Shown here: positions 1,332 through 41,926 of the stretch, piece by piece | How the letters are laid out: each line of letters starts with the position of its first letter | Numbering within the stretch: the stretch's first letter is position 1 | NCBI GenBank assembly: GCA_964016885.1 | Contig: OZ024743.1 | Coordinates: 200,012,001 to 200,076,000 of the forward strand | Source of the DNA: Eledone cirrhosa | Taxonomy: Eukaryota | Direction of reading: 5' to 3' | DNA length: 64,000 nucleotides | Program-made: the position numbers and the translations under genes | The notes under the pieces: model-generated | Told to the model about the DNA's origin: nothing | The model's database searches: none | What the model saw: the letters and a program-made list of their open reading frames with translations, nothing else

Positions 1332-4266
<2,935 letters not shown>

Positions 4267-16307: not shown

Positions 16308-19300
16308 CTACAGGCTGATATAGAGAGAAGGCCCATTCACTCGGGCCATTCTCGCCACTTTCACCCACCTTTCATAAAACTTGCTGGGGTACAGCACCTC
16401 TCTCTCCATCCTGATTCTTCTTCCAAAGTGGTATTTGAAAAAAAGAATCAGTTGTTGGCCGGAGAGAAAGGTGTCTGACCTCAGCCCTTTCAACCTTGTC
16501 CACCATACAACCTCTTTCGCCATAGCTATCACACAAAGGAAAACCGCCTCTCCTTCGTTTTTGAAGGAGGGTGGCGGTTTGATAATGACAATGGACTCGG
16601 TGGTCAACCGGATTGGTCCCACCCGCGACAATAGCCGTTCTACATAGCCCCACAGGTCAGTGACGCCCGGGCAGTGTATGAATGCGTGCGCAACGGTTTC
16701 TTCGTCTCGCACGCACCTCGGATAGATCTTTTTTGCAGGGTCCCTACCCGGGCACCCATGTCTCGAACTGGTAGAGCTCCTCGGTAGGAATGCTAGGCCA
16801 GGGACTTTGGGAAGTTGTCCATCGGTCCCGGGCGGAAGGTCCTACCGAACAGACTGGCCAATTCATCTTCCTCTACGCCTAGAGTTTCACCGAGCGCGTC
16901 GTCGCACTTGCTGCGGATCAACCCTTTATAGAATGACGAAGTGGAGTCTCCATTGATCGCCGGGTCCGCCTGCCAGAGGGCTGTGAGCGCCTGAGCACAT
17001 TCGATGTGCCAGTCGCCCATTTTCCTCGGTCTTTCCTTGACCCAGGACTGCAGCTCGGTCAGCGAGACGAGTCGTGGGAAGGCTCGCCTCACGAACGGGG
17101 CCCACACCGGTTGTCCGGTGAGGAATACGTAAGGGTGCCGCAGCCTGAGCGCGTGTTTGCGCATCGTCAACCACAGCATCCCCAGCCCTCCGTTAGAAGG
17201 GTGTTGGCAGCAGATGGATCTTCTCACCAAAGGAGCCCGCCTCTTCCAAAAGAATCGGAAGAGCGCGCGTTCCATTTTGGCGAGCGTTTTGGCTGGACAA
17301 GGCACGACGGTCAAGCGGTAGTAGATGGCGGACGCTATAAAAGTGTTCGCCACCTCCGCTCGACCTTTCAAGGATAGTTTGCACTCGGCCCACTTTTGGG
17401 TGAGTGCAAACACCTTGGCCCTCACTTCGTACCAGTTCTTCTCCACCTGGAGGTCCGGACCAAACCAGACCCCGAGCAGCTTTACCGGTCCTTCCGTGCA
17501 GCGTCCGACGACGCCATCGGAAGGCATCGGTTTGCCTCTCCACGATCCGAGTTGCAAACCGATGGACTTGTTCCGGTTCAGCTTCGCTCCTGTGAAACTT
17601 TCGTATTCCTTCAGTAAGCTGACGACTTCTTCCATTTGCGAGGCGCTCGACACCATTACTGTCATGTCGTCGGCGTAGGCCGACGCCGCTTTCCGCAGTT
17701 CCGGTTCCAGAGGGATGCCCTGCAATAGCTCCAACTTCCGCAGTAGTGGCTCGAGAGTTAGTACGTACATAAGGCAGGAGAGAGGGCATCCCTGTCGAAT
17801 GGATCGCGTAATATGGAATGGCTCCGAGAGGTAGCCGTTCACCTTGACCCTTGAGCAGATGTGCTGTTGTGCATTGCAGCAATCCAGCCCCTAAACACGG
17901 GTCCGAAGCCTGCCGCCTCGAGCACCGCATCCAGGTAACGATGGTCAACACTATCGAAAGCCTTAGACTGATCCAAGTTGGTCAGGGCCCCACCGAAGCC
18001 GGGTTTACACCCTACCCTCTCTATGATGTATCGCATGAGGTGGAGGTTGTCGTGTATGGACCTGGTCGGGATTGCGCATGTCTGCGCTTCTCCCACCAGG
18101 TTCTCGACGACAAGCGCCAGCCTCTTTGCCAACACCTTGGCCAAAATCTGTAACTCTGTGTTTAGCAGAGTTATGGGCCGGAAGTTGCCTATGTCATCCC
18201 TCTTATTCTCGTCCTTCCTGATTAGTGTGACCACGCCCCCGGTTACAGAACTGGGAATTCTCCCGTTCTGTTGCCAGTTGCAGTAGACCGCTTCCAGGAG
18301 ACCGGAGAATAAGTCCGGCATTGCTACGTAAAATTCGTAGGGTAGACCATCTAGACCTGGAGATTTGCGTTTGCCGCATTGGCTCAGCGCGTCCCCTATC
18401 TCAGTGGCTGAAATCGGCTTTTCGCAGAACTTTGACTCGCTGTCCGAGAGTCGCGGTAGGCCGTCGAGGTATGGACCAAAATCCATAGCCTCCCCCCCCC
18501 CGAACAGCTGAGCAAAATGCCGCTGAAAAGCCGCATACATCTGCTTCGGCTCACGTATCACGCGTCCGTTTTGGTCCTTCAAAGACCGAATCGAGGACTT
18601 GTTGCTACTTTTTGCCTCCGTCACTCGGGCCCAGCTAACAGCTTTGGCTCCCTCGTTTCCGAGAGCACGTATTTTGCTTCTGACAACGCAACCCTCGTGC
18701 TTTGCGTCGAAGAACTGGTCCAAGGCCGTTCTCGTTGCTAGCACGCTGGCTACGTTGCCACTTCTAATTGCCTCTTCTACTTTATCTACCAGTTCCTTCT
18801 CGGTTCTATTTCTATCTAACGCTAATTCTTTACTAAAAACTATCGAGTCTAATCTAACTGCCCTCTTGAGAGAGTACCACCATCTGTTGTTGACAATGGC
18901 CCCTGTCAAGTTCTGTTTAACTAAAGTGCTAATCCGTCTACTGTAGGCTTTGCTTGTCGGTAACGACAAGTTCAGGTTCCAGTAGCCGGGTCCTTGTCTA
19001 TGGGTTCTATCAAGGTTGGCCATGCAGGTCACTAGTTTGTGATCTGAATAGGCAACCATGAACATATGTGGACAGCTTAATATGTCCCTATCCTTATTTC
19101 TAACTAGAACCCTATCTAGGTACGATCTAGATGTTCCGCTACGATTACTCCACGTCCACAGTGGCGCAGTCGGAAAATCTAGTCGATATCTATCGGCCAG
19201 GTCAAATCGGTCGATTAACTGTTTGGGGCTGTTACACCCCCCTTTATCGGGACATGCTCCCACATAGTCCCAACGTGCATCTAGGATTCCATTCCAGTCC

Positions 19301-19719
19301 CCCACTAAAAGCAAGGAGCGGGACGTTCCCAGAAAAGTCTCTAGACGCTTGAAGAAGTCTGGCCGCGGTGTCCCGGATGGGGCATATGCAGCCACCAGCC
19401 TGAAGGCTCCACCTTCACTAACGTCAACGTCTAGGACCACCAGTCGACCCTCCGGGTCCAGATGTACCGTCTGTGTTACGAGGCCCAGGTGTTTCCGCAG
19501 CAAAACGGCAACTCCGCCCCCACCCCCCGGTTGACAGAGAGATGCGTAGATCTCAAAGTCATCGAAGATGGGGGCCAGCTGTCGCTCGCTGTGGATCCTG
19601 GACTCGCAAATGGCTACCACATCCATACTGTGCGACCTGAGGTCGTTTAAGAGTTTGCCCTGTTTCCAGGGCATCCCCAGGCCGCGTACGTTCACACATC
19701 CAACTTTTATATTGGCCAT
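16308..19719 (-). pseudogene. LINE ORF2 of copy 1, broken by small deletions
   Basis: Same motifs as copy 2, with frameshifting deletions relative to copy 2 near 17860 and 16765-16795. Confidence 0.9.
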
Positions 19720-19752
19720 GTTGGTGCTGAAAAGTTAAAAGAGGAAAAGAGA

Positions 19753-22230: not shown

Positions 22231-25200
22231 CTACAGGCTGATATAGAGAGAAGGCCCATTCACTCGGGCCATTCTCGCCACTTTCACCCACCTTTCATAA
22301 AACTTGCTGGGGTACAGCACCTCTCTCTCCATCCTGATTCTTCTTCCAAAGTGGTATTTGAAAAAAAGAATCAGTTGTTGGCCGGAGAGAAAGGTGTCTG
22401 ACCTCAGCCCTTTCAACCTTGTCCACCATACAACCGCTTTCGCCATAGCTATCACACAAAGGAAAACCGCCTCTCCTTCGTTTTTGAAGGAGGGTGGCGG
22501 TTTGATCATGACAATGGACTCGGTGGTCAACTGGATTGGTCCCACCCGCGACAATAGTCGTTCTACATAGCCCCACAGGTCAGTGACGCCCGGGCAGTGT
22601 ATGAATGCGTGCGCGACGGTTTCTTCGTCTCGCACGCACCTCGGACAGATCTTTTTTGCAGGGTCCCTGCCCGGGCGCCCATGTCTGTAGAGCTTGTCTC
22701 GAACTGGTAGAGCTCCTCGGTAGCACTGCCAGGCCAGGGACTTTTGGAAGTTGTCCATCGGTCCCGGGCGGAAGGTCCTACCGAACAGACTGGCCAGTTC
22801 ATCTTCCTCCACGCCTAGAGTTTCACCGAGCGCGTCGTCGCACTTGCTGCGGACCAACCCTATATAGAATGACGAAGTGGAGTCTCCACTGATCGCCGGG
22901 TCCGCCTGCCAGAGGGCTGTGAGCGCCTGAGCACATTCGATGTGCCAGTCGCCCATTTTCCTCGGTCTCTGCTTGACCCAGGACTGCAGCTCGGTCAGCG
23001 AGACGAGTCGTGGGAAGGCTCGCCTCACGAACGGGGCCCACACCGGTTGTCCGGTGAGGAATACGTAGAGATGCCGCAGCCTGAGCGCGTGTTTGCGCAT
23101 CGTCAACCACGGCATCCCCAGCCCTCCGTTAGAAGGGTGTTGGCAGCAGATGGATCTTCTTACCAAAGGAGCCCGCCTCTTCCAAAGGAATCGAAAGAGG
23201 GCGCGCTCCATTTTGGCGAGCGTTTTGGCTGGACAAGGCACGACGGTCAAGCGGTAGTAGATGGCGGACGCTATAAAAGTGTTCGCCACCTCCGCTCGAC
23301 CTTTCAAGGATAGTTTGCACTCGGCCCACTTCTGGGTGAGTGCAAACACCTTGGCCGTCACTTCGTTCCAGTTCTTCTCCACCTGGAAGTCCGGACCAAA
23401 CCAGACCCCGAGCAGCTTTACCGGTCCTTCCGTCCAGCGTCCGACGACGCCATCGGAAGGCATCGGTCTGCCTCTCCACGATCCGAGTTGCAAACCGATG
23501 GACTTGTCCCGGTTCAGCTTCGCTCCTGTGAGACTTTCGTATTCCTTTAGTAAGGTGCCGACTTCCTCGATTTGCGAGGCGCTCGACACCATTACTGTCA
23601 CGTCGTCGGCGTAGGCCGACGCCGCTTTCCGCAGTCCCGGTTCCAGAGGGATGCCCTGCAATAGCTCCAGCTTCCGCAGTAGTGGCTCGAGAGTCAGTAC
23701 GTACAGAAGGGAGGAGAGAGGGCATCCCTGTCGAATGGATCGCGTAATATGGAACGGCTCCGAGAGGTAACCGTTCACCTTGACCCTTGAGCAGATGTTG
23801 CTGTTGTGCATTGCAGCAATCCAGCACCTGAACACGGGTCCGAAGCCTGCCGCCTCGAGCACCGCATCCAGGTAACGATGGTCAACCCTATCGAAAGCCT
23901 TAGACTGATCCAAGTTGATCAGGGCCCCACCGAAGCCGGGTTTACACCCTACCCTCTCTATGATGTATCCCATGAGGTGGAGGTTGTCGTGTATGGACCT
24001 GGTCGGGATCGCGCATGTCTGCGCTTCTCCCACCAGGTTCTCGACGACAAGCGCCAGCCTCTTTGCCAACACCTTGGCCAAAATCTGTAACTCTGTGTTT
24101 AGCAGAGTTATGGGCCGGAAGTTGCCTATGTCATCCCCCTTATTCTCGTCCTTCCTGATTAGTGTGACCACGCCCCCGGTTACAGAACTGGGAATTCTCC
24201 CGTTCTGTTGCCAGTTGCAGTAGACCGCTTCCAGGAGACCGGAGAATAAGTCCGGCATTGCTACGTACAATTCGTAGGGTAGACCGTCGAGACCTGGAGA
24301 TTTGCGTTTGCCGCATTGGCTCAGCGCGTCCCCTATCTCAGTGGCTGAAATCGGCTTTTCGCAGAACTTCGCCTCGCTGTCCGAGAGTCGCGGTAGGCCG
24401 TCGAGGTATGGACCGAAATCCATAGCCTCTCCCGGCGCGCCGCTCCCCCCGAACAGCCGAGCAAAGTGCCGCTGAAAAGCCGCACACATCTGCTTCGGCT
24501 CACGTATCACGCGTCCGTTTTGGTCCTTCAAAGACCGAATCGTGGACTTGTTGCCACTTTTTGCCTCCGTCACTCGGGCCCAGCTAACAGCTTTGGCTCC
24601 CTCGTTTCCCAGAGCACGTATTTTGCTTCTGACAACTCAGCCCTCGTGCTTTGCGTCGAAGAACTGGTCCAAGGCCGTTCTCGTTGCTAGCACGCTGGCT
24701 ACGTTGCCACTTCTAATAGCCTCTTCTACTTTATCTACCAGTTCCTTCTCGGTTCTATTTCTATCTAACGCTAATTCTTTACTAAAAACTATCGAGTCTA
24801 ATCTAACTGCCCTCTTGAGAGAGTACCACCATCTGTTGTTGACAATGGCCCCTGTCAAGTGCTGTTTAACTAAAGTGCTAATCCGTCTACTGTAGGCTTT
24901 GCTTGTCGGTAACGACAAGTTCAGCTTCCAGTAGCCGGGTCCTTGTCTATGGGTTCTATCAAGGTTGGCCATGCAGGTCACTAGTTTGTGATCTGAATAG
25001 GCAACCATGAACATTTGTGGACAGCTTAACATGTCCCTATCCTTATTTCTAACTAGAACCCTATCTAGGTACGATCTAGATGTTCCGCTACGATTACTCC
25101 ACGTCCACAGTGGCGCAGTCGGAAAATCTAGTCGATATCTATCGGCCAGGTCAAATCGGTCGATTAACTGTTTGAGGCTGTTACACCCCCCTTTATCGGG

Positions 25201-25668
25201 ACATGCTCCCACATAGTCCCAACGTGCATCTAGGATTCCATTCCAGTCCCCCACTAAAAGCAAGGAGCGGGACGTTCCCAGAAAAGTCTCTAGACGTTTG
25301 AAGAAGTCTGGCCGCGGTGTCCCGGATGGGGCATATGCGGCCACCAGCCTGAACGCTCCACCTTCACTACCGTCAACGTCTAGGACCACCAGTCGACCCT
25401 CCGGGTCCAGATGTACCGTCTGTGTTACGAGGCCCAGGTGTTTCCGCAGCAAAACGGCAACTCCGCCCCCACCCCCCGGTTGACAGAGAGATGCGTAGAT
25501 CTCAAAGTCATCGAAGATGGGGGCCAGCTGTCGCTCGCCGTGGATCCTGGACTCGCAAATGGCTACCACATCCAAACTGTGCGACCTGAGGTCGTTTAAG
25601 AGTTTGCCCTGTTTCCAGGGCATCCCCAGGCCGCGTACGTTCACACATCCAACTCTTATATTGGCCAT
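22231..25668 (-). pseudogene. LINE ORF2 (APE endonuclease, RT, C-terminal cysteine-rich zinc-binding domain) with a single in-frame stop
   Basis: ORFs 24637-25668 and 22231-24573 are in the same frame, split by one TGA (24637-24639). Motifs: CVNVRGL, VGDWN, SYLDR, SDH, KSPGLDG, FRPITLLN, DQSKAFDRV, RQGCPLS, YADD, CPRC..ETVAHAFIHCP. Confidence 0.93.
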
Positions 25669-25701
25669 GTTGGTGCTGAAAAGTTAAAAGAGTAAAAGAG
25701 A

Positions 25702-27619
25702 TCACTCACCCTTCGCCTCCCGGGGACCAGGCCGCACGATTTCCATGGGGGTGTTGGAGGGGTTGTCTGGATGGGTGGTGGTTTCCGGCGGGGTGGGGAC
25801 GCAGATGTTTGGTGGGGTGGGGTCTGGTGGAATGGGGGTGTCTGGGGTGGGGAGGCATTTGAGAAGGACGCGGTTGAGTGGTTTCACGCAGGAATTCCCC
25901 ACATCCTTCTCAAATGTTTCTTTTAGGGACCTATAAGTTTGTATAGGGACCCTAATCAGTTTTAGGTTCATTTTTTTGCTATTTTTTATAGAGTGGGCGA
26001 AAGTTTTCCCTTCGGTGAAAACCGAAGGGTCGTTCGTAATGGTCTCCATTAGTGTTTTGTTTTCAGTGTTTATGTAAGTGTAAGTGTAATTTTCTTGTGT
26101 TGTGTTTGTTTTTGTCTGTAGTTCTTGTGTGTGCTTTCGTTTTGTTGTAGGTATTTTGTTTTCAGGAGGTGGGGGTTTTGTTTGTGATATTTTTGTTGTT
26201 TGTGTTGGTGGTTGTATGTTTGTGGTAGTGTTTGCTGGTTTTTTGCTTTTGTGATGTCTTTTCTTTCTTTTCGAGCGATGGGGTTCTCCCTCGTCTTCAC
26301 TGGGTGATGGCGAGATAGCCTCATCTGTTGTATCGTCTGTGTGATTGGGGAGGGGTATGTCTTGGGGAGCTGTTGTGTCTGTATGTGATTTTGCAGTGGT
26401 TTTAGGTGGAGTGAGGTTGGGTGGGACTGTGTTTGTTGTGGTTATTTTTGTGTGTTGGTGTTGTTGTTGTAGTGGTGGTGTTGGTGGTTGTGTTGTTTTG
26501 ATGGGTGTTGGCAGAAGAGCCTTTTTTTGGTTCATTAGTTTAGGACAGGAAGCCCTCAGGTGACCCCTGCTAAAGCAATGGTAACATGAAGGCCGCCTAC
26601 CCTCAACCGAAAGGTTTATGTAGGTAAGTCCGTCCAGGAGTACACGCTGTGGGATCATAGCTATTCGCTCTGGGCTCATTTGCACCAGAACTTCAATGCT
26701 AGTCCCATTGAATACATCTCTGGGGGACTTGCCTACTGACAGTATTCTGTCTTCATCAAAATTGATGAAGCCGCACAGTATCCACCATATGTTCACCTTT
26801 GGTGTGACACTTGTGATTCTGATCTTTTGTGTCCTTTTTCCCATGTATGTAGGGAAAAAGGTGTACAGGTTGGATACAATTGGCGACACAGAGTAATTTT
26901 GGGCCGTCAATTGATCCTTCATCAGTACCGAAATACTCCCAAAAAGTTTGCTTCTTTGAATGAATGCAATATCATTCATTGAATCTTTGAAAAACCAGTT
27001 CAATATCTTTCTGTGACAATTGGACTGGTTTTCGGGTAGAATTGGAAACTGTCCTAAAAACTATCGTTTTGAGAGCAGTTTCCTTGCGAATTTCTACCGG
27101 AGAATTGATGCTGAAAGCACCATTTTTTTCGAAGGTGACATATCTCTTAGCGTCCTTTAAAAGGTGTTCAGCATTTGTTATGTCGAGATATATCAATTGT
27201 TCTTTCTTTTGAACTTTCTCCGCAAAGGAGATTTTTGGTTTCTTTGTGGAATCCGTATTGGTGGTGTTGTCATTATTGTTGTTATTCTTGTTGTTATTCT
27301 TGTTGTCACCGATGTTGGTATCATCCGTATTTTCCTTGGTGTTGTTGTTGTCTTTGATGCTGGTGTTATTGGCGTTGTCTTTATTTTTTTCTTTGTTGTT
27401 GTTATCATTGTTGCTTTTATCATCATTATTGGTTTTGCTGTTATTTTTGTTGTCATTGAGCTGTTTGGTGTCATTTGTGTTGTTTGGATGTGAATTCGTT
27501 TTTTTATTTTCATTTTGTCTTTCCATCTCTATAGTATCTAGTGAAGAAGACGTTGTTGACTGCGAGCTTTGTAGTCTTACCGCCTCTCCACCACCATTAT
27601 CGTTGGACGCAGCGTTCAT
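25702..27619 (-). pseudogene. LINE ORF1 (gag-like, CCHC zinc knuckle) of copy 2, one frameshift
   Basis: ORFs 26972-27619 and 25702-27003 are joined by a 1-nt shift in an A run near 26990. Contains CYHCFSRGHLRASC plus N-rich and T/P-rich low-complexity regions. Confidence 0.88.
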
Positions 27620-31994: not shown

Positions 31995-32044
<50 letters not shown>

Positions 32045-32085
32045 GAGAGTAAAACAAAGAAGCCTTCAATACATAAAAAGTCTTT

Positions 32086-32131
32086 ATTAGCCGACAATGT
32101 TTCGTCCTATTAAGGACTCATCAGAGCAATT
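32086..32131 (-). ncRNA. Minimal type I hammerhead ribozyme in the inverted pLTR
   Basis: Minus strand reads attgct CTGATGA gtcct taat aggac GAA ACATTGT C ggctaat. The core is intact and stem I is gct/ggc. Confidence 0.82.
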
Positions 32132-33768
32132 AAAACAACAAGAAGTAATATCGGCAGATACAAGCCGGAAGCTCCGAAGAATATGGAGTGTACATACACT
32201 GGAGTATTACAAAAATATATAATAAAAATATATGATAAAAATTACTAAGGATGTATATAACACTAAGAACCATATTACAAATATAGTCCAAAGCAAAAAC
32301 TAGAGCTAAACAAAGGTGGTTATATAGAGCAGGAATTATATATAATACAATATAATATACTATAATATACCTTTACCAACATTAAAATTACAATAAAAAT
32401 CAAAAGATACAATATGCATATGTATATATGTGCGCACACGTACACACACACACACACACATACAACAATACACACATTCATCTTCAACTGCACAAATTAA
32501 ACCTTATTAAGAATTTGAATATAAAAATAAGCATGATAGGAATGAAAATAATAATAATAATAATACATCTACCCAATATACATGAGGTAATAATATGATA
32601 TAATTATAAGTAGTACATAGGTAATAATATGATATAATTATAAGTAGCACATATAATAATGAATAATGCAATTATATACTATATAATACAATATAATAGA
32701 ATAGATAATCTCCGGTTAATTTACACAAACAATATAGATGTCACAATAATAATATAATAATAATATTCTAAATGTACTCAAGTTAACAAGTCAATTCATA
32801 CTGGGTTACAGAGTAGGTGAGGAAAAATAAAATGTACAATACCTCAAAAAAATTATGATGATACAGAAGTACAAACATCTTACAAGATATATAAGGTTTA
32901 ACATGTAATTAACGGTAAATAATAAGGATCAATATTACAATAAAAAATACAATATAATATAATATATTATATAAAATAAAATTACTTATAATTACAAGGT
33001 TGGTAGACAGACATGTACATGGATGAGTGAGTGAGTAGTAAATATAATGCACAGTAGTATTACAAAGTATAGAATAATATAAATAAATAGAATCAACCGG
33101 AAATTAAAAAACAAAAACAAACGTATAGATTTAGGTCTCACATGCAGTTAAGTAGTTAAGTAAAAGCTAAGGAAACAACCCCTGTAAATGACTCGAAAAC
33201 CCTATTTGATAAATTAATATTAAAAATATTTAAACTATCCAATAAGGCAGTATAATATTGGCTATAGTTTAAGTCATTAAAGTTTATAAACGTTAATATT
33301 TCGTTCCAAATGTTTACAAAAAGGAATGAAATTTTTTTATTATCATATACATAACGATATCGAAAGAACTGACTTAATCAGAATTAAGGTAGTCTAATAG
33401 GGACAGAAATGAAGAAATGTATGGAGGATGCAAAGGGGCATAACATATAGTCGATATACTATATTACATAATAGAAAGGAGTGTAAAAGAAGGGGGGGTA
33501 AATAATCCTAGTCAATTTGGAGGGGTTGACATTAAGTTTATGTGCGCATGGGGGGGGGGGGGTTCCAAAGAAGAATCCGAATAAAGATAAAAATAAAAAT
33601 AAATATAAAAATAAGGATAAAATAAAATAGCGTGAAATATATAATCTTATATACATTCATAAGGTGTAACAGTGAAAATTTAATGCGTAAGAAGATATAT
33701 GTGGTGCAGTAGCCAAAAGATTATGAGATCTAGAATGAAGACTAAAAACCTATACTCCATGGATTATA

Positions 33769-35991
33769 GTGCTTACCGCGACTTTATTTATAAGGAGCTG
33801 CATAGAAACTATAAAAAAAACTACACTTGAAAATTTGAACCACATCAATAGTGATGGCCTTAGAATTGTCTCTGACCTCGGCCTCGATAAGTATACCCAG
33901 CCATATTACCCTCGAGAACCGAGATTCACTCTTAAGGATCATAAGGTTGATTTTATTAGTAACCCCTCTGTTAGACTCATCTGTCCTTCTAAGTCTGATA
34001 TAGCCATTATCAGTAAAAAAATCCTTGACCTTATTATACCAGATGTTAGGGATAAGGTTAATTTTAACCTATGGAGGAACACTAAGGAAGTTATAGATTG
34101 GTTCTCCGGGATTAATAGACTTGAATCTAATAAGTTTATCCAATTCGATATTGATGCCTACTACACATCAATTTCACCCGTCCTCCTCAATAAAGCTCTA
34201 ATGTTGGCAATGAGAGTGTCCAGCCTTACACGATCACAGGTAGATATTATACTAGCAGCCCGTAAAACTATTATTAAATTTGAGGACACATTTTGGACCC
34301 GTAAAAACACGCCCAACAATTTCGACGTTACAATGGGTTCGAGTGATTCGGCCCAGGTTACTGATCTTGTTGGGTTGTTCCTCCTTAATGAACTATATGC
34401 TACCTTCCCGCACCTTATAGGCGGACTATATCGTGATGATGCATTGTTTGTAATTAACTCTAGCACCAACAATGTACAACATAATAGGAAGAAGCTTTAT
34501 AAGTTTTTTAAAGGCTATAACCTTTCGATCACGATAGATAGAAATGATAGAGCGGTTAACTTTTTAGATGTGACTTTGGACTTGGTCACTAATAGTTTTA
34601 AACCCTTCCATAAGCCTAATGAAATACTTTCTTATGTTAGTCCCAATTCTAACCACCCCAAGTCTATGATAAGCTCTATAATTAAGGGTGTATCTAATAG
34701 GATTTCCACACTCTCTAAGGACGTAGGAACATTTAATGATCATGCGGAGTACTATAATAATGCCCTAGCAAATTCAGGTTACTCTAGTAAAATACACTAT
34801 AATAATAGTAACCTTAGAAAGTCTCCGTCTACTTTTAATAATAATAATATAATATCACATAACATGGCCATGAATGTGAGTAGCAAACATAGTAACCGTA
34901 AAAATTATATAGGTGTATCTGAACCCACCCATAAGTTAACCCACCGAACCCGCAATAGTGAATATAATACCTTTAGGAAACAAGTTGAACCCCCTGAGCG
35001 CTCACACATTGGTGATAATTTAGCTGGATCTTATTCTGATAATGTTGCTCCTACTGATCCTACTGGAGGTAGAAACTGTAATAGACTTAATGAAATTTTG
35101 GCTGATTCTATGAATGCGGCTTTAACTAATCCTTGTAGTAACCCTAGTCTCGATGGCGGCATTTTTGATAATGGTAGAGTCGGTAAGAATAAAAATAGAA
35201 GGCGATTAAACACTTATTTTAACCCGCCATATAATCAGGAAGTATCAACTAATATCCTTAGGTCTTTCTTCTCCATCTTAGAGAAAAATTTCCCCCCTTC
35301 TCATAAATACCATAGTATTTTTAATAAAAATGTTATTAAACTTTCATTCTCTACCACCCCTAATATTAGTTCTCATTTAGCTAGCACTAACAATAGGAAA
35401 ATTAGGGATGAATTCTCCTCTCTACATACTACTAGTCTGAACAGATCTGGCAATGCATTACCACCAGAACAGTCCTTATCTAATAGCAATCCTACGTGTA
35501 ATGCATCACCACTTGAGTCAACCAATAACACCCGGAAGTGCAATTGTAGAGTGAGTGCTAACTGCCCTTTAAACGGTAACTGCCTTTCTAAGAACATTGT
35601 CTATGCTTGCGAAGTTATAACTAATTCCTCTAATAGAACTTATATAGGCTCTACATCTAACACTTTTAAGACTAGGTTTAACTCTCATATCTCTAATTTC
35701 AAGCATGTTAAGTTTAAGAATTCTACTTCTTTAGCACATTATGTCTGGGATCTTAAGATAGCTAATATACCATATAGCCTTAACTGGCGTTTAGTAGCAC
35801 GCTCTAACCACCTTTCTACACATACTAAGTTTTGTAATCTCTGTATCCTCGAGACACACTCTATAATCTTCTCTAGCGCATCTTTACTTAATAGAAAGTC
35901 TGAGATATTCTCTTCTTGCCCCCATGCTATTTCTAATTCATACTTTTATTATAAACCTAAACGTTCTAGTAGTACAAATTGTACCCATTAG
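33769..35991 (+). CDS. Penelope-like RT + C-terminal GIY-YIG endonuclease (Naiad-like signature), N-terminally truncated
   Basis: Uninterrupted 740 aa. RT motifs FIQFDIDAYYTSI, FDVTMGSSDSAQVTDLVG, LYRDDAL and VNFLDVTLDL. Then CNCR..CPLNGNCL, NIVY..TYIGST..FKTRFNSH, CNLCILE and LLNRKSE..CPH. The start is not a true ATG because the 5' end is cut at the inversion junction. Confidence 0.92.
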   Translation: MLTATLFIRSCIETIKKTTLENLNHINSDGLRIVSDLGLDKYTQPYYPREPRFTLKDHKVDFISNPSVRLICPSKSDIAIISKKILDLIIPDVRDKVNFNLWRNTKEVIDWFSGINRLESNKFIQFDIDAYYTSISPVLLNKALMLAMRVSSLTRSQVDIILAARKTIIKFEDTFWTRKNTPNNFDVTMGSSDSAQVTDLVGLFLLNELYATFPHLIGGLYRDDALFVINSSTNNVQHNRKKLYKFFKGYNLSITIDRNDRAVNFLDVTLDLVTNSFKPFHKPNEILSYVSPNSNHPKSMISSIIKGVSNRISTLSKDVGTFNDHAEYYNNALANSGYSSKIHYNNSNLRKSPSTFNNNNIISHNMAMNVSSKHSNRKNYIGVSEPTHKLTHRTRNSEYNTFRKQVEPPERSHIGDNLAGSYSDNVAPTDPTGGRNCNRLNEILADSMNAALTNPCSNPSLDGGIFDNGRVGKNKNRRRLNTYFNPPYNQEVSTNILRSFFSILEKNFPPSHKYHSIFNKNVIKLSFSTTPNISSHLASTNNRKIRDEFSSLHTTSLNRSGNALPPEQSLSNSNPTCNASPLESTNNTRKCNCRVSANCPLNGNCLSKNIVYACEVITNSSNRTYIGSTSNTFKTRFNSHISNFKHVKFKNSTSLAHYVWDLKIANIPYSLNWRLVARSNHLSTHTKFCNLCILETHSIIFSSASLLNRKSEIFSSCPHAISNSYFYYKPKRSSSTNCTH

Positions 35992-37673
35992 TTGATATAT
36001 TCCATTACTTATTTTTTAGTTTAGGTCCTTTTGTTTGCCAACATTATTATTATCATCATTATTATAATTGGTTTTTGATGACTCTTCATTCTAGATCTCA
36101 TAATCTTTTGGCTACTGTACCACATCTATCTTCTTACGCATTAAATTTTCACTGTTACACCTTATGAATGTATATAAGATTATATATTTCACGCTTTTAT
36201 TTTATTTTATCCTTATTTTTATTTTTATTTTTATTTTTATCTTTATTCGGATTCTTCTTTGGACCCCCCCCCCATGCGCACATAAACTTAATGTCAACCC
36301 CTCCAAATCGACTAGGATTATTTAACCCCCCCCCTTCTTTTACACTCCTTTCTATTATGTAATATAGTATATCGACTATATTTTATGCCCCTTTGCATCC
36401 TCCATACATTTCTTCATTTCTGTCCCTATTAGCCTACCTTAATTCTGCTTAAGTCAGTTCTTTCGATATCGTTATGTATATGATAATAAAAAATTTTCAT
36501 TCCTTTTTGTAAACATTTGGAACGAAATATTAACGTTTATAAACTTTAATGACTTAAACTATAGCCAATATTATACTGCCTTATTGGATAGTTTAAATAT
36601 TTTTAATATTAATTTATCAAATAGGGTTTTCGAGTCATTTACAGGGGTTGTTTCCTTAGCTTTTACTTAACTACTTAACTGCATGTGAGACCTAAATCTA
36701 TACGTTTGTTTTTGTTTTTTAATTTCCGGTTGATTCTATTTATTTATATTATTCTATACTTTGTAATACTACTCACTCACTCATCCATGTACATGTCTGT
36801 CTACCAACCTTGTAATTATAAGTAATTTTATTTTATATAATATATTATATTATATTGTATTTTTTATTGTAATATTGATCCTTATTATTTACCGTTAATT
36901 ATATGTTAAACCTTATATATCTTGTAAGATGTTTGTACTTCTGTATCATCATAATTTTTTTGAGGTATTGTACATTTTATTTTTCCTCACCTACTCTGTA
37001 ACCCAGTATGAATTGACTTGTTAACTTGAGTACATTTAGAATATTATTATTATATTATTATTGTGACATCTATATTGTTTGTGTAAATTAACCGGAGATT
37101 ATCTATTCTATTATATTGTATTATATAGTATATAATTGCATTATTCATTATTATATGTGCTACTTATAATTATATCATATTATTACCTATGTACTACTTA
37201 TAATTATATCATATTATTACCTCATGTATATTGGGTAGATGTATTATTATTATTATTATTTTCATTCCTATCATGCTTATTTTTATATTTAAATTCTTAA
37301 TAAGGTTTAATTTGTGCAGTTGAAGATGGATGTGTGTATTATTGTATGTGTGTGTGTGTGTGTACGTGTGCGCACATATATACATATGCATATTGTATCT
37401 TTTGATTTTTATTGTAATTTTAATGTTGGTAAAGGTATATTATAGTATATTATATTGTATTATATATAATTCCTGCTCTATATAACCACCTTTGTTTAGC
37501 TCTAGTTTTTGCTTTGGACTATATTTGTAATATGGTTCTTAGTGATATATACATCCTTAGTAATTTTTATCATATATTTTTATTATATATTTTTGTAATA
37601 CTCCATTGTATGTACACTCCATATTCTTCGGAGCTACCGGCTTGTATCTGCCGATATTACTTCTTGTTGTTTT

Positions 37674-37720
37674 AATTGCTCTGATGAGTCCTTAATAGGA
37701 CGAAACATTGTCGTCTAATA
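37674..37720 (+). ncRNA. Minimal type I hammerhead ribozyme in the PLE 3' pLTR
   Basis: CTGATGA, stem II GTCCT-taat-AGGAC, GAA, then ACATTGT-C (short stem III, GUC cleavage triplet). Stem I is weakened by one substitution relative to the left-arm copy. Confidence 0.8.
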
Positions 37721-37865
37721 AAGACTTTTGATGTATTGAAGGCTTCTTTGTTTTACTCTCTTAATTTTTCGGCTCTTCTGTTTAACTACATTGAGCTATA
37801 TCTTTTACTGTCATTTCTATAATACGAAGAGTGTGTTTAACTTTAACCAACTCCAGTATTTTAAC

Positions 37866-38185
<320 letters not shown>

Positions 38186-38505
38186 ATTATTATTACTATA
38201 TATATATATATATATATATATATGTCTTCTCGTCAATGTTCGCAAGATCTTATGTTCAAATGAATCATTGACTTGATTTTCTCATTTTTTCCTCTCTTTA
38301 CGTTGCCTCACCATTCATGTTGTTTACCTGTCTCTCTTTCTCCACCCAATTCTTTTTATCCCAATAACTTATTTTAGTTATTGTTCGCGGTAGCCTGAGG
38401 TATCTGGTCTTTAATGCGAAGAAATACCTATGATGGCTAGTAGACCACTGATGATGGATAGTCCTGGTTTCTATTTCTAATTCTTCATTTTTATTTGTAT
38501 ATATA

Positions 38506-41500
38506 TAACGATAGTTATAGCTCTGATTCATCTGAATTATTGAGCCCTCTGCCGCTCATTTCGAATTTTGTTTATCGTGAACTCGTGCGCCGATTTTTCG
38601 ATACTCGATCTTTCTAATATTTTTAGCTCTGGACATAGCTATCCACCAGTTAATTTTATTGCTCATTTTTTGTCGATTCTATTGAGTGATGAATAACTTT
38701 TGTTTTATTTTAACATGTCTATTGAGCACTCTTATTCGATATGTGTATTTCCACATTCCCTCGAATTGTTTTCGCGGATATAGGGGTTATCTCCCTTGTC
38801 TAATGCCATGTGCGTTTTTCACTGGTAGTTGGCCCCTTTTCCGCTAGGAAAAAAGCTCGTTGAGAAAGTAAACTCCGTTCCGCTTACTCTAGTAGGCTTT
38901 TATATTTATATGTGAGCTGATAGAGTACAGTCTAAGGATTTACAGAAACCCATGAAGCTAGATTTAACACCTTTCTAGTGGGTCCGGGTATGATTTTACA
39001 TTCATTTAAATTATTGATGTATTGTTTTATTGATATTTTTTATCTGTTTGTCCCGAATCTTCCTTTATCGATTTTTTATCGTATGGTTGATTGTAGACTT
39101 GTTCTATATGTGACGGTATTTTAACGATAGTTATAGCTCTGATTCATCTGAATTATTGAGCCCTCTGCCGCTCATTTCGAATTTTGTTTATCGTGAACTC
39201 GTGCGCCGATTTTTCGATACTCGATCTTTCTAATATTTTTAGCTCTGGACATAGCTATCCACCAGTTAATTTTATTGCTCATTTTTTGTCGATTCTATTG
39301 AGTGATGAATAGCTTTTGTTTTATTTTAACATGTCTATTGAGCACTCTTATTCAATATGTGTATTTCCACATTCCCTCGAATTGTTTTCGCGGATATAGG
39401 GGTTATCTCCCTTGTCTAATGCCATGTGCGTTTTTCACTGGTAGTTGGCCCCTTTTCCGCTAGGAAAAAAGCTCGTTGAGAAAGTAAACTCCGTTCCGCT
39501 TACTCTAGTAGGCTTTTATATTTATATGTGAGCTGATAGAGTACAGTCTAAGGATTTACAGAAACCCATGAAGCTAGATTTAACACCTTTCTAGTGGGTC
39601 CGGGTATGATTTTACATTCATTTAAATTATTGATGTATTGTTTTATTGATATTTTTTATCTGTTTGTCCCGAATCTTCCTTTATCGATTTTTTATCGTAT
39701 GGTTGATTGTAGACTTGTTCTATATGTGACGGTATTTTAACGATAGTTATAGCTCTGATTCATCTGAATTATTGAGCCCTCTGCCGCTCATTTCGAATTT
39801 AGTTTATCGTGAACTCGTGCGCCGATTTTTCGATACTCGATCTTTCTAATATTTTTAGCTCTGGACATAGCTATCCACCAGTTAATTTTATTGCTCATTT
39901 TTTGTCGATTCTATTGAGTGATGAATAGCTTTTGTTTTATTTTAACATGTCTATTGAGCACTCTTATTCGATATGTGTATTTCCACATTCCCTCGAATTG
40001 TTTTCGCGGATATAGGGGTTATCTCCCTTGTCTAATGCCATGTGCGTTTTTCACTGGTAGTTGGCCCCTTTTCCGCTAGGAAAAAAGCTCGTTGAGAAAG
40101 TAAACTCCGTTCCGCTTACTCTAGTAGGCTTTTATATTTATATGTGAGCTGATAGAGTACAGTCTAAGGATTTACAGAAACCCATGAAGCTAGATTTAAC
40201 ACCTTTCTAGTGGGTCCGGGTATGATTTTACATTCATTTAAATTATTGATGTATTATTTTATTGATATTTTTTATCTGTTTGTCCCGAATCTTCCTTTAT
40301 CGATTTTTTATCGTATGGTTGATTGTAGACTTGTTCTATATGTGACGGTATTTTAACGATAGTTATAGCTCTGATTCATCTGAATTATTGAGCCCTCTGC
40401 CGCTCATTTCGAATTTTGTTTATCGTGAACTCGTGCGCCGATTTTTCGATACTCGATCTTTCTAATATTTTTAGCTCTGGACATAGCTATCCACCAGTTA
40501 ATTTTATTGCTCATTTTTTGTCGATTCTATTGAGTGATGAATAGCTTTTGTTTTATTTTAACATGTCTATTGAGCACTCTTATTCGATATGTGTATTTCC
40601 ACATTCCCTCGAATTGTTTTCGCGGATATAGGGGTTATCTCCCTTGTCTAATGCCATGTGCGTTTTTCACTGGTAGTTGGCCCCTTTTCCGCTAGGAAAA
40701 AAGCTCGTTGAGAAAGTAAACTCCGTTCCGCTTACTCTAGTAGGCTTTTATATTTATATGTGAGCTGATAGAGTACAGTCTAAGGATTTACAGAAACCCA
40801 TGAAGCTAGATTTAACACCTTTCTAGTGGGTCCGGGTATGATTTTACATTCATTTAAATTATTGATGTATTGTTTTATTGATATTTTTTATCTGTTTGTC
40901 CCGAATCTTCCTTTATCGATTTTTTATCGTATGGTTGATTGTAGACTTGTTCTATATGTGACGGTATTTTAACGATAGTTATAGCTCTGATTCATCTGAA
41001 TTATTGAGCCCTCTGCCGCTCATTTCGAATTTTGTTTATCGTGAACTCGTGCGCCGATTTTTCGATACTCGATCTTTCTAATATTTTTAGCTCTGGACAT
41101 AGCTATCCACCAGTTAATTTTATTGCTCATTTTTTGTCGATTCTATTGAGTGATGAATAGCTTTTGTTTTATTTTAACATGTCTATTGAGCACTCTTATT
41201 CGATATGTGTATTTCCACATTCCCTCGAATTGTTTTCGCGGATATAGGGGTTATCTCCCTTGTCTAATGCCATGTGCGTTTTTCACTGGTAGTTGGCCCC
41301 TTTTCCGCTAGGAAAAAAGCTCGTTGAGAAAGTAAACTCCGTTCCGCTTACTCTAGTAGGCTTTTATATGTATATGTGAGCTGATAGAGTACAGTCTAAG
41401 GATTTACAGAAACCCATGAAGCTAGATTTAACACCTTTCTAGTGGGTCCGGGTATGATTTTACATTCATTTAAATTATTGATGTATTGTTTTATTGATAT

Positions 41501-41700
41501 TTTTTATCTGTTTGTCCCGAATCTTCCTTTATCGATTTTTTATCGTATGGTTGATTGTAGACTTGTTCTATATGTGACGGTATTTTAACGATAGTTATAG
41601 CTCTGATTCATCTGAATTATTGAGCCCTCTGCCGCTCATTTCGAATTTTGTTTATCGTGAACTCGTGCGCCGATTTTTCGATACTCGATCTTTCTAATAT
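38506..41700. repeat. Tandem array with a 616-bp unit, 5 full copies plus ~114 bp
   Basis: AACGATAGTTATAG starts at 38507, 39123, 39739, 40355, 40971 and 41587 (period 616). Only about five substitutions were seen among units. TA repeats at both ends. Confidence 0.97.
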
Positions 41701-41926
41701 ATATATATATATATATAGTAATAATAAGTAGGGACGAAGTCTTAAATTATCATTAAGTTTATTAAGGTGTGACGCGCGTTTCACGATTGATCAGCTCAAG
41801 GTTCGCTTTATATCGACTGGGTCCAATAGATAATCATATCTATACACCCTTTGACATTTCTCAGACACACACACACACACACATACACACACACATCCAC
41901 ACAATGCACATATTTACACACACACA

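Follow-up and report, generated by a model that had tools for sequence, protein, structure and literature searches.

A dispersed family of non-coding tandem repeats in Eledone cirrhosa with a predicted variant hammerhead and Penelope-like insertion ends

A 64,000-nt stretch of the Eledone cirrhosa genome (contig OZ024743.1, positions 200,012,001 to 200,076,000; here termed the window) carries at 38506..41700, on the + strand, an array of 5.19 head-to-tail units of 616 bp each. This raises the question of how such an array, a single insertion, was written into the genome. An initial annotation of the sequence proposed a retrozyme-like element, i.e. a multimeric cDNA made from a circular RNA and mobilized by the machinery of Penelope-like elements (PLEs). 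The array is probably a young insertion of a non-coding retroelement that consists of tandem units, is dispersed in the genome and belongs to the animal retrozyme kind, with a predicted variant hammerhead ribozyme; its circular RNA would be copied into TA repeats by a PLE-type reverse transcriptase (RT). What stands of the proposal is the dispersal, the TA target, the homogeneous arrays and a predicted hammerhead in every unit; the catalytic core, the phase of the ends, the link to a neighbouring PLE and the remark on unit length required revision.

The units of the 3195 bp array start at 38506, 39122, 39738, 40354, 40970 and 41586; phase denotes the position within the 616-bp unit, phase 1 being 38506 + 616k. 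The period, the span and all five private substitutions reported before (38696, 39354, 39801, 40256 and 41370) are reproduced. There is no long open reading frame, the longest stop-to-stop frame of a unit trimer having at most 62 codons, and TA tracts flank the array on each side, as had been described. The short tract at the 5′ junction (38498..38507, unstranded) overlaps the unit by 2 nt. The GC content of the unit is 35.6%. A non-coding tandem repeat a few hundred bp long, as found here, characterizes retrozymes. The monomer had been called unusually long; it falls inside the range of retrozyme consensus lengths, which extends from 51 bp up to 972 bp in the accessible text of a recent preprint (10.64898/2026.07.22.740005), where those of ray-finned fish average 650 bp.

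The unit was searched for in the 3.0 Gb assembly, as had been suggested, and dispersed short arrays were found. There were 1464 first-look candidates; the 40 that were scored are 40 separate arrays, 97.8–99.8% identical and 1.15–6.5 units long. Exact 3′ junctions into TA number 742 genome-wide, one 36-mer of the unit has 1036 copies, and the block from GAAA to GUC of the predicted ribozyme has 2953 matches (∼2,950 units); the reversed controls gave 0 in each case. With the family scattered over at least 740 insertions, the single-locus array that would have undone the proposal is not what the genome contains. Contig C1 supplied a further 75 loci, all within its first 280 Mb (63 found via the junction and 12 via the 36-mer alone), and an older subfamily, ∼82–88% identical, was sampled as 44 loci from the first 100 listed matches. 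Junction-chosen C1 loci (n = 65) have a median of 1.27 units, with 25 below one unit and 11 of at least five, and many copies of the family measure about 240 bp. Retrozymes of this kind are dispersed and lack long terminal repeats, a primer-binding site and a polypurine tract; the family agrees in its dispersal and its ends, the latter two elements not having been searched for by name. An old-subfamily array of ∼65 units of 608–609 bp (G000:C1:81.71-81.75 Mb; L207, L258, L259) has the standard 3′ end and looks like a retrozyme insertion with the appearance of a satellite.

The 3′ end is shared by nearly all loci. It lies at phase 111–120 in 40/40 scored arrays, 75/75 C1 loci and 43/44 old-subfamily loci. 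Loci picked independently of the end have it in 95 of 96 cases (40/40 + 12/12 + 43/44), and those chosen by the end in 63/63. Three or more TA dinucleotides follow at 38/40, 75/75 and 41/44 loci, respectively. In the window this end, at phase 111–115 and followed by (TA)n, is found at 41696..41717 (+) and would be the start of reverse transcription. It is situated 251 nt behind the predicted ribozyme cut and is therefore distinct from the ribozyme end. Conservation within the unit is highest in the 111 nt preceding it (5% mismatch against 31 old copies, vs 8–17% in the rest), which contain a predicted hairpin at phase ∼60–105 (41645..41690, +), a candidate recognition element for the RT.

The 5′ ends are variable, with a TA-like flank at 86 of 148 junctions. 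Accordingly, the variable start phase that had been predicted is seen at the 5′ ends, but the 3′ end is fixed and not of random phase. A fixed 3′ end together with variable 5′ ends is a target-primed, Penelope-like pattern, and a fixed internal 3′ end with 5′ truncation, as in non-autonomous PLEs, is what the loci display. The accessible parts of two studies describe PLEs as starting RT inside the RNA, giving inversions and targeting TA (PMC11167929; PMC8557442), and we infer that the copying enzyme is of PLE type. An inverted 5′ arm is present at 2 of 159 loci (L044 and L052). The arm of L044 (G000:C540) stops at phase ∼7, so that ∼104 nt separate it from the main end; the arms of the neighbouring PLE (window 37766–37869) differ by ∼103 nt, and the same 10-base motif precedes both ends. 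This hints at a second start site of the Hydra type, in a single case where chance is possible.

The 5′ ends also cluster. Among 156 callable ends (excluded were one complex locus, redundant fragments of loci that had been split, and two arrays that met a gap or continued past the DNA retrieved), 29 fall at phase 480–507, 11 in the preceding 28 nt and 3 in the following 28 nt, an excess with p = 1e-10 against a uniform distribution. The density of TA/AT dinucleotides is equal in the peak window and the following 28 nt (8 against 9). The excess is seen in every sample (9/40, 12/73 and 8/43), and when the first 114 ends were scanned without guidance, the window richest in ends was the one at 480. 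To judge from these sequences, the pile-up is a possible footprint of cleavage. A smaller cluster at phase 605–17 (window 38506–38522) comprises 17/156 ends, five of them at phase 11 and one that of the window array itself; it may reflect microhomology or a second resolution site.

Units within an array are closely alike. In 85 multi-unit stretches compared at 70 subfamily-diagnostic columns, 3991 of 3997 site-by-array observations agree and 6 are discordant. Locus-private alleles occur in all covering units in 21 instances (8 of these in 3–6 units) and in one unit in 112. Arrays of the youngest clade reach 10–22 or more units, with identical units in 15/15, 17/17 and 20/22, and private modal alleles are found in arrays L091, L096 and L110. 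No subfamily mosaics were seen. A monomer bottleneck at each insertion would be the simplest account of this homogeneity, and among templates of that sort a circle would be the simplest. The homogeneity may also have come about through linear masters, through repeated jumping, through expansion at a later time or through smoothing by the assembly. In L041, private alleles repeat every three units (1 + 4; 3 + 6), which may stem from a template that was a trimer or from three units having been duplicated together afterwards. Arrays with T at phase 424 are longer (median 9.9 units, n = 15, vs 1.05–3.6 in 33 others; p = 7e-5). The idea that this change weakens the ribozyme and lengthens arrays was rejected, and no cause is claimed, because no clade is younger than 424T, long arrays occur in its 424A sister as well, and phase 424 lies within the extension of stem II described below.

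Fold and conservation point to a type I hammerhead in each unit. In unit 1 it is predicted at 38855..38989 (+). Stem I has 5 bp (38855–38859 with 38985–38989); the core, U3 to A9, is at 38860–38866 and is followed by an extra A (38867); stem II pairs 38868–38872 with 38939–38943 and is followed by a second extra A (38944). GAAA (38945–38948), stem III and the GUC site (38982–38984) complete the structure, with the predicted cut after 38984 (+). In phase terms, stem I is 350–354/480–484, the core UUGA-G-AA is 355–361 and stem II is 363–367/434–438. The predicted hammerheads of units 2 to 5 are at 39471..39605, 40087..40221, 40703..40837 and 41319..41453, all on the + strand, and the variant core is present in all five units. 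Stem II carries a 66-nt extension (38873..38938, +) that bears compensatory changes and includes CTGATAGA (38917–38924) as a helix strand.

The unconstrained minimum free energy fold of phases 330–501 is a three-way junction of −43.4 kcal/mol, and RNAalifold on 72 copies returns the same junction. A block match to such a hammerhead arises in 5/1500 shuffles, and folding of the circular unit gives z = −3.2 (40 shuffles). All block orders of the hammerhead were searched and the arrangement C-G-S was found; no permuted form was detected in the any-order search (SGC, CSG, GCS; orders after the accessible text of PMC10085705). The canonical Hammerhead_1 form, with a CUGANGA core, a C3-G8 pair and a short helix II, is not what the unit has, U3 being present in 72/72 copies and C3 in one copy of the family; a canonical descriptor likewise gives no match.

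The initial annotation had placed GAAA, stem III and the GUC site correctly (38945–38984). Its core is a different matter: CUGAUAGA sits inside the 66-nt extension, and the fold with CTGATAGA as catalytic core has −29.4 vs −43.4 kcal/mol, a penalty of 14. The fold-supported core lies 57 nt upstream and has the pattern UUGA-N-A/G-A, with U3-A8 here and U3.G8 in older copies. In the rejected core the stem II pair 421–437 is broken in 34/72 aligned copies, and no pair shows two-sided change. Its relaxed descriptor is above chance (7/3000 shuffles), with a stem I of 1 bp; the doubt voiced about stem I holds for that core only. A canonical-core version gave 11 matches and 4 in the control, and 0/10 fetched matches correspond to the unit. 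K-turn and box C/D readings were dropped after a check by eye, the proper bulge being absent. The fragment put forward for a cleavage assay, 38890–39010, would miss the core (38860–38866) and one strand of stem I.

Conservation was assessed in 72 copies, drawn from 89 distinct segments minus near-duplicates and three 5′-truncated ones, with the partly truncated L119 kept. U3, G5, A6 and A9 are invariant in 72/72 copies, which extend to ∼83% identity, and U4 is conserved in 71/72. Position 7 is free (G32/A19/U15/C6), and position 8 is A in 26 copies and G in 46. The genome-wide tally for position 8 is 1653 units with A, 1051 with G and 5 with C or U (control 28). Across phases 351–367, variation at subfamily level is confined to 359, 360 and 362; sites with all four bases in the unit are 335, 359 and 391. 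Of the aligned cells in the hammerhead pairing, 95.4% are paired, and four pairs show two-sided change, every one in the extension.

A midpoint-rooted, ladder-like tree of 119 copies has G8 at its base and a single gain of A8 leading to the main young lineage, and position 8 changes twice more elsewhere; the direction from G8 to A8 depends on the midpoint root and on the longer end branches of the older copies. In L091 and L094, within the youngest clade, A8 has gone back to G8 throughout a 22-unit array. It is a matter of speculation that RNA editing lies behind this return.

The following sequence of events can be envisaged. Arrays would be transcribed from the + strand, and the hammerhead, for which fold and conservation speak, would cut after phase 479 to yield 616-nt monomers. 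By analogy with the scheme in the accessible text of PMC7229834, a host ligase may then circularize the monomers. A TA-targeting PLE protein would nick (TA)n and start cDNA at phase 111–115 beside the conserved hairpin. The RT would reach the cut 5′ end 251 nt away, or travel around the circle up to 22 or more times, and the cDNA would be joined via TA-like microhomology. A bolder formulation, to which we give well under an even chance, is that the family is a circular-RNA retroelement driven by an active hammerhead, in which a structured insert in stem II keeps the core halves ∼76 nt apart; the element would have recorded in vivo cleavage in its 5′ ends, passed from U3.G8 to U3-A8 while jumping, and laid down as much as 14 kb of identical units in single RT runs around one circle.

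A number of observations weigh against a working ribozyme and a circular template. We infer transcription, self-cleavage, circularity and the partner enzyme. Stems I–III are nearly invariant and for that reason show no two-sided covariation; the number of two-sided pairs overall is reached in 78/500 shuffles, and the copies are related. The invariance of the GAAA, GUC and CTGATAGA columns is not a test, because these were used to pick the copies, and the hammerhead descriptors were defined after the sequence was seen. The restriction of position 8 to A or G is modest evidence, since the position changed only ∼3 times on the tree. An unpaired A flanks the base of stem II on both sides, and a U3.G8 wobble is present in ∼39% of units. 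The change C3U impairs hammerhead cleavage. In the literature searched, neither a published test of U3.G8 nor a natural U3.G8 core was found. The pair probability of stem I is 0.01 in the whole-circle ensemble, and the local fold has a z of only −1.7. Rfam finds nothing in the unit (36500–39800 and 39400–39700 searched); of 183 weak matches in the whole window, the 150 listed are nearly all on microsatellites. The 5′ peak is at 491–504, 11–25 nt behind the predicted cut, with only two ends (L128 and L248) at 480, so that a cleavage origin requires ends to have been trimmed back as far as TA-like microhomology. An initiator-like TCATTT sequence at phase 497–502 falls within this peak. Eleven private alleles occur in some units of an array only, which denotes rearrangement after insertion. 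No autonomous partner was found when the neighbouring PLE and 30 family loci were compared, with flanks short of the 3′ end. PLE hammerheads can also be dispensable for insertion in vitro, according to the accessible text of PMC11167929.

The alternative that survives best, though we consider it unlikely, is that the family is a non-autonomous PLE passenger copied from linear read-through RNA of master arrays, like MRC1, with a weak or vestigial hammerhead and a 5′ peak caused by a transcription start at ∼490–500 or by RT stalling on the folded hammerhead. The fixed 3′ end, variable 5′ ends and TA target fit it equally well, and the offset of the peak from the cut and the non-standard core are in its favour. 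Multicopy head-to-tail non-autonomous PLEs without canonical hammerheads exist, as described in parts of PMC8557442. Of nine Xenopus retrozyme dimers tested, one cleaved in vitro. Linear read-through should, however, give mosaics, yet just the 6 discordant observations in 3997 were encountered, and private alleles fill arrays of 10–22 units. The core pattern is moreover retained over ∼17% divergence, several 5′ ends lie upstream of TCATTT and two are at 480, and no peak accompanies other local folds of the unit that are just as stable.

Less probable again is that the hammerhead cuts and the linear monomer is reused by an RT jumping over and over from its 5′ end to a 3′ end, with no covalent circle. 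This accounts for the 5′ peak behind the cut and for the many ∼240-bp copies, but the mosaics breaking at the cut site (479/480) and the junction indels that it predicts were not seen among 331 unit rows, where one deletion at 481 and one insertion at 489 were noted. Mobilization by a RT of the long interspersed nuclear element (LINE) type, or by DNA rolling-circle replication as in Helitrons, is improbable. The lack of an identified PLE partner, the LINE-type RT/endonuclease frames in the window and the rarity of inversions could be cited for it; against it, the 3′ end falls inside the unit and always within (TA)n, without a tail or poly(A), and the one-sided fixed ends, the + strand RNA fold and the ribozyme suit an RNA template. 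Ordinary local tandem duplication, satellite DNA or misassembly is least credible of all: some arrays did grow or rearrange after insertion, as the ∼65-unit array and the partly shared alleles indicate, but short copies that share one end and are dispersed in their hundreds refute duplication as the origin of the family, and the five private changes tell the window units apart.

The preferred reading, a circular RNA copied by a PLE-type enzyme, directs attention to the PLE next to the array. This is a separate, Hydra-type insertion at 32039..37869 (+) with (TA)n at both ends. It has a 5′-truncated RT-GIY-YIG frame (33739–35991), an inverted arm (32039–33753, matching 36067–37766) and a minimal hammerhead at 37675–37719 (+; 27.1 bits). 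The other arm also has a minimal hammerhead, at 32075–32140 (−), and the two differ by one base in stem I. Its Hydra marks are CxCX5C, a C-terminal GIY-YIG, the TA ends and the minimal hammerhead; the DKT motif is seen only in its longer relatives, and the clade was assigned from these marks. The element had been called intact. Its 750-codon frame is open, but 230 amino acids precede YRDD vs 377–434 in 5/5 longer genomic relatives; it is cut at the inversion junction, lacks DKT and is ∼150–200 N-terminal residues short. Nor does the supposed link to the array find support, as the PLE has no significant sequence similarity to the unit, and two independent landings in TA tracts are the best explanation for the 0.6 kb between them. 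The family of this PLE is a candidate helper because it is abundant and has many open frames. PLE candidates in the genome number 40,881, of which the partner comparison covered the neighbour's family. PLE-protein matches, at positions that are not fixed, occur in the flanks of 13/123 fetched stretches.

Between the PLE and the array, at 38000–38190, there is a short interspersed repeat with ∼20 relatives in the window (77–95% identity), which looks like a tRNA-derived SINE. Two similar LINE-type endonuclease/RT elements stand in tandem at 16796–19734 and 22234–27060 (−), with frames broken or split, and a further RT fragment is at 2231–3793.

Public sequencing runs were also examined (n = 8); seven are contig sets and one is Hi-C with 6 unrelated partial reads, and none of the runs listed as carrying the unit is from RNA. 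In runs X4, X6, X7, X9 and X10, labelled as five other organisms, low-depth contigs carry young-clade alleles of the family, those in X4 and X9 being of the 424T clade. They may be due to contamination, to relatives or to transfer, which are indistinguishable here.

Metazoan non-LTR retrozymes, in the accessible text of PMC7229834 and 10.64898/2026.07.22.740005, resemble the family in having non-coding, low-GC tandem units with one type I hammerhead each, arrays from dimers to tens of units and co-occurrence with PLEs. They differ in that expression and cleavage have been shown for them, whereas this family is known from genomic sequence. The predicted hammerhead of the present family departs from the canonical form in its U3-A8 or U3.G8 pair, its stem II extension of 66 nt and its long stem III, and is invisible to Rfam. 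Those papers propose RT on circles; the fixed 3′ end, 5′ pile-up and homogeneity are measured here. As far as the accessible parts of PMC4209133 and PMC3088659 go, hammerhead variants of PLEs share the U3-A8 core (Cercyon PLE), reported active, as well as an unpaired base between 9 and 10.1 and a G10.1-C11.1 pair. Their helix II is 7–8 bp, vs ∼76 nt here. In contrast to these variants, the present family has a second unpaired A before G12 and has U3.G8 in ∼1,050 units, basal on the tree; no dimer is needed, because stem III is full.

Hydra-clade PLEs and Chlamys MRC1 share the (TA)n target, multicopy head-to-tail arrangement and occasional inverted 5′ arm, in the parts of PMC8557442 that describe them; unlike these, the family has no open reading frame and no 3′ similarity to the one autonomous family tested. 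Poseidon PAc of Anolis likewise starts RT at a fixed internal RNA site near a stem loop and uses AT-rich targets, and the accessible text of PMC11167929 gives it two start sites and no read ends at the hammerhead site, whereas here there is essentially one end and 5′ clustering behind the predicted cut. A search of the published literature, mainly open-access main texts, listed no report of this family or of a cephalopod retrozyme; PLEs from cephalopods, or families of this sort, may be given in the supplements of PMC8557442 and of the bioRxiv preprint. The squid genome paper, in its accessible text, only counts 235 Hammerhead_1 matches (PMC6962438).

Judged from its sequence, this is a new family of animal non-LTR retrozymes and a structural variant among them. 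Systems of this kind are already known, which limits surprise. Movement of retrozymes by RT on circular RNA with PLE machinery has hitherto been proposed rather than shown in the accessible published work, and the family combines three genomic footprints that bear on it: a fixed start, a stop behind the predicted ribozyme cut and single-template arrays. It also specifies an RNA, a start site and a target for reconstitution. The predicted hammerhead would widen the natural structural range of this ribozyme, with its long stem II insert, U3.G8 and U3-A8, and standard descriptors would undercount such forms. If this is true, many animal satellites and PLEs thought to be without ribozymes may carry ones of this type, because their build escapes the Rfam model and short-helix descriptors.

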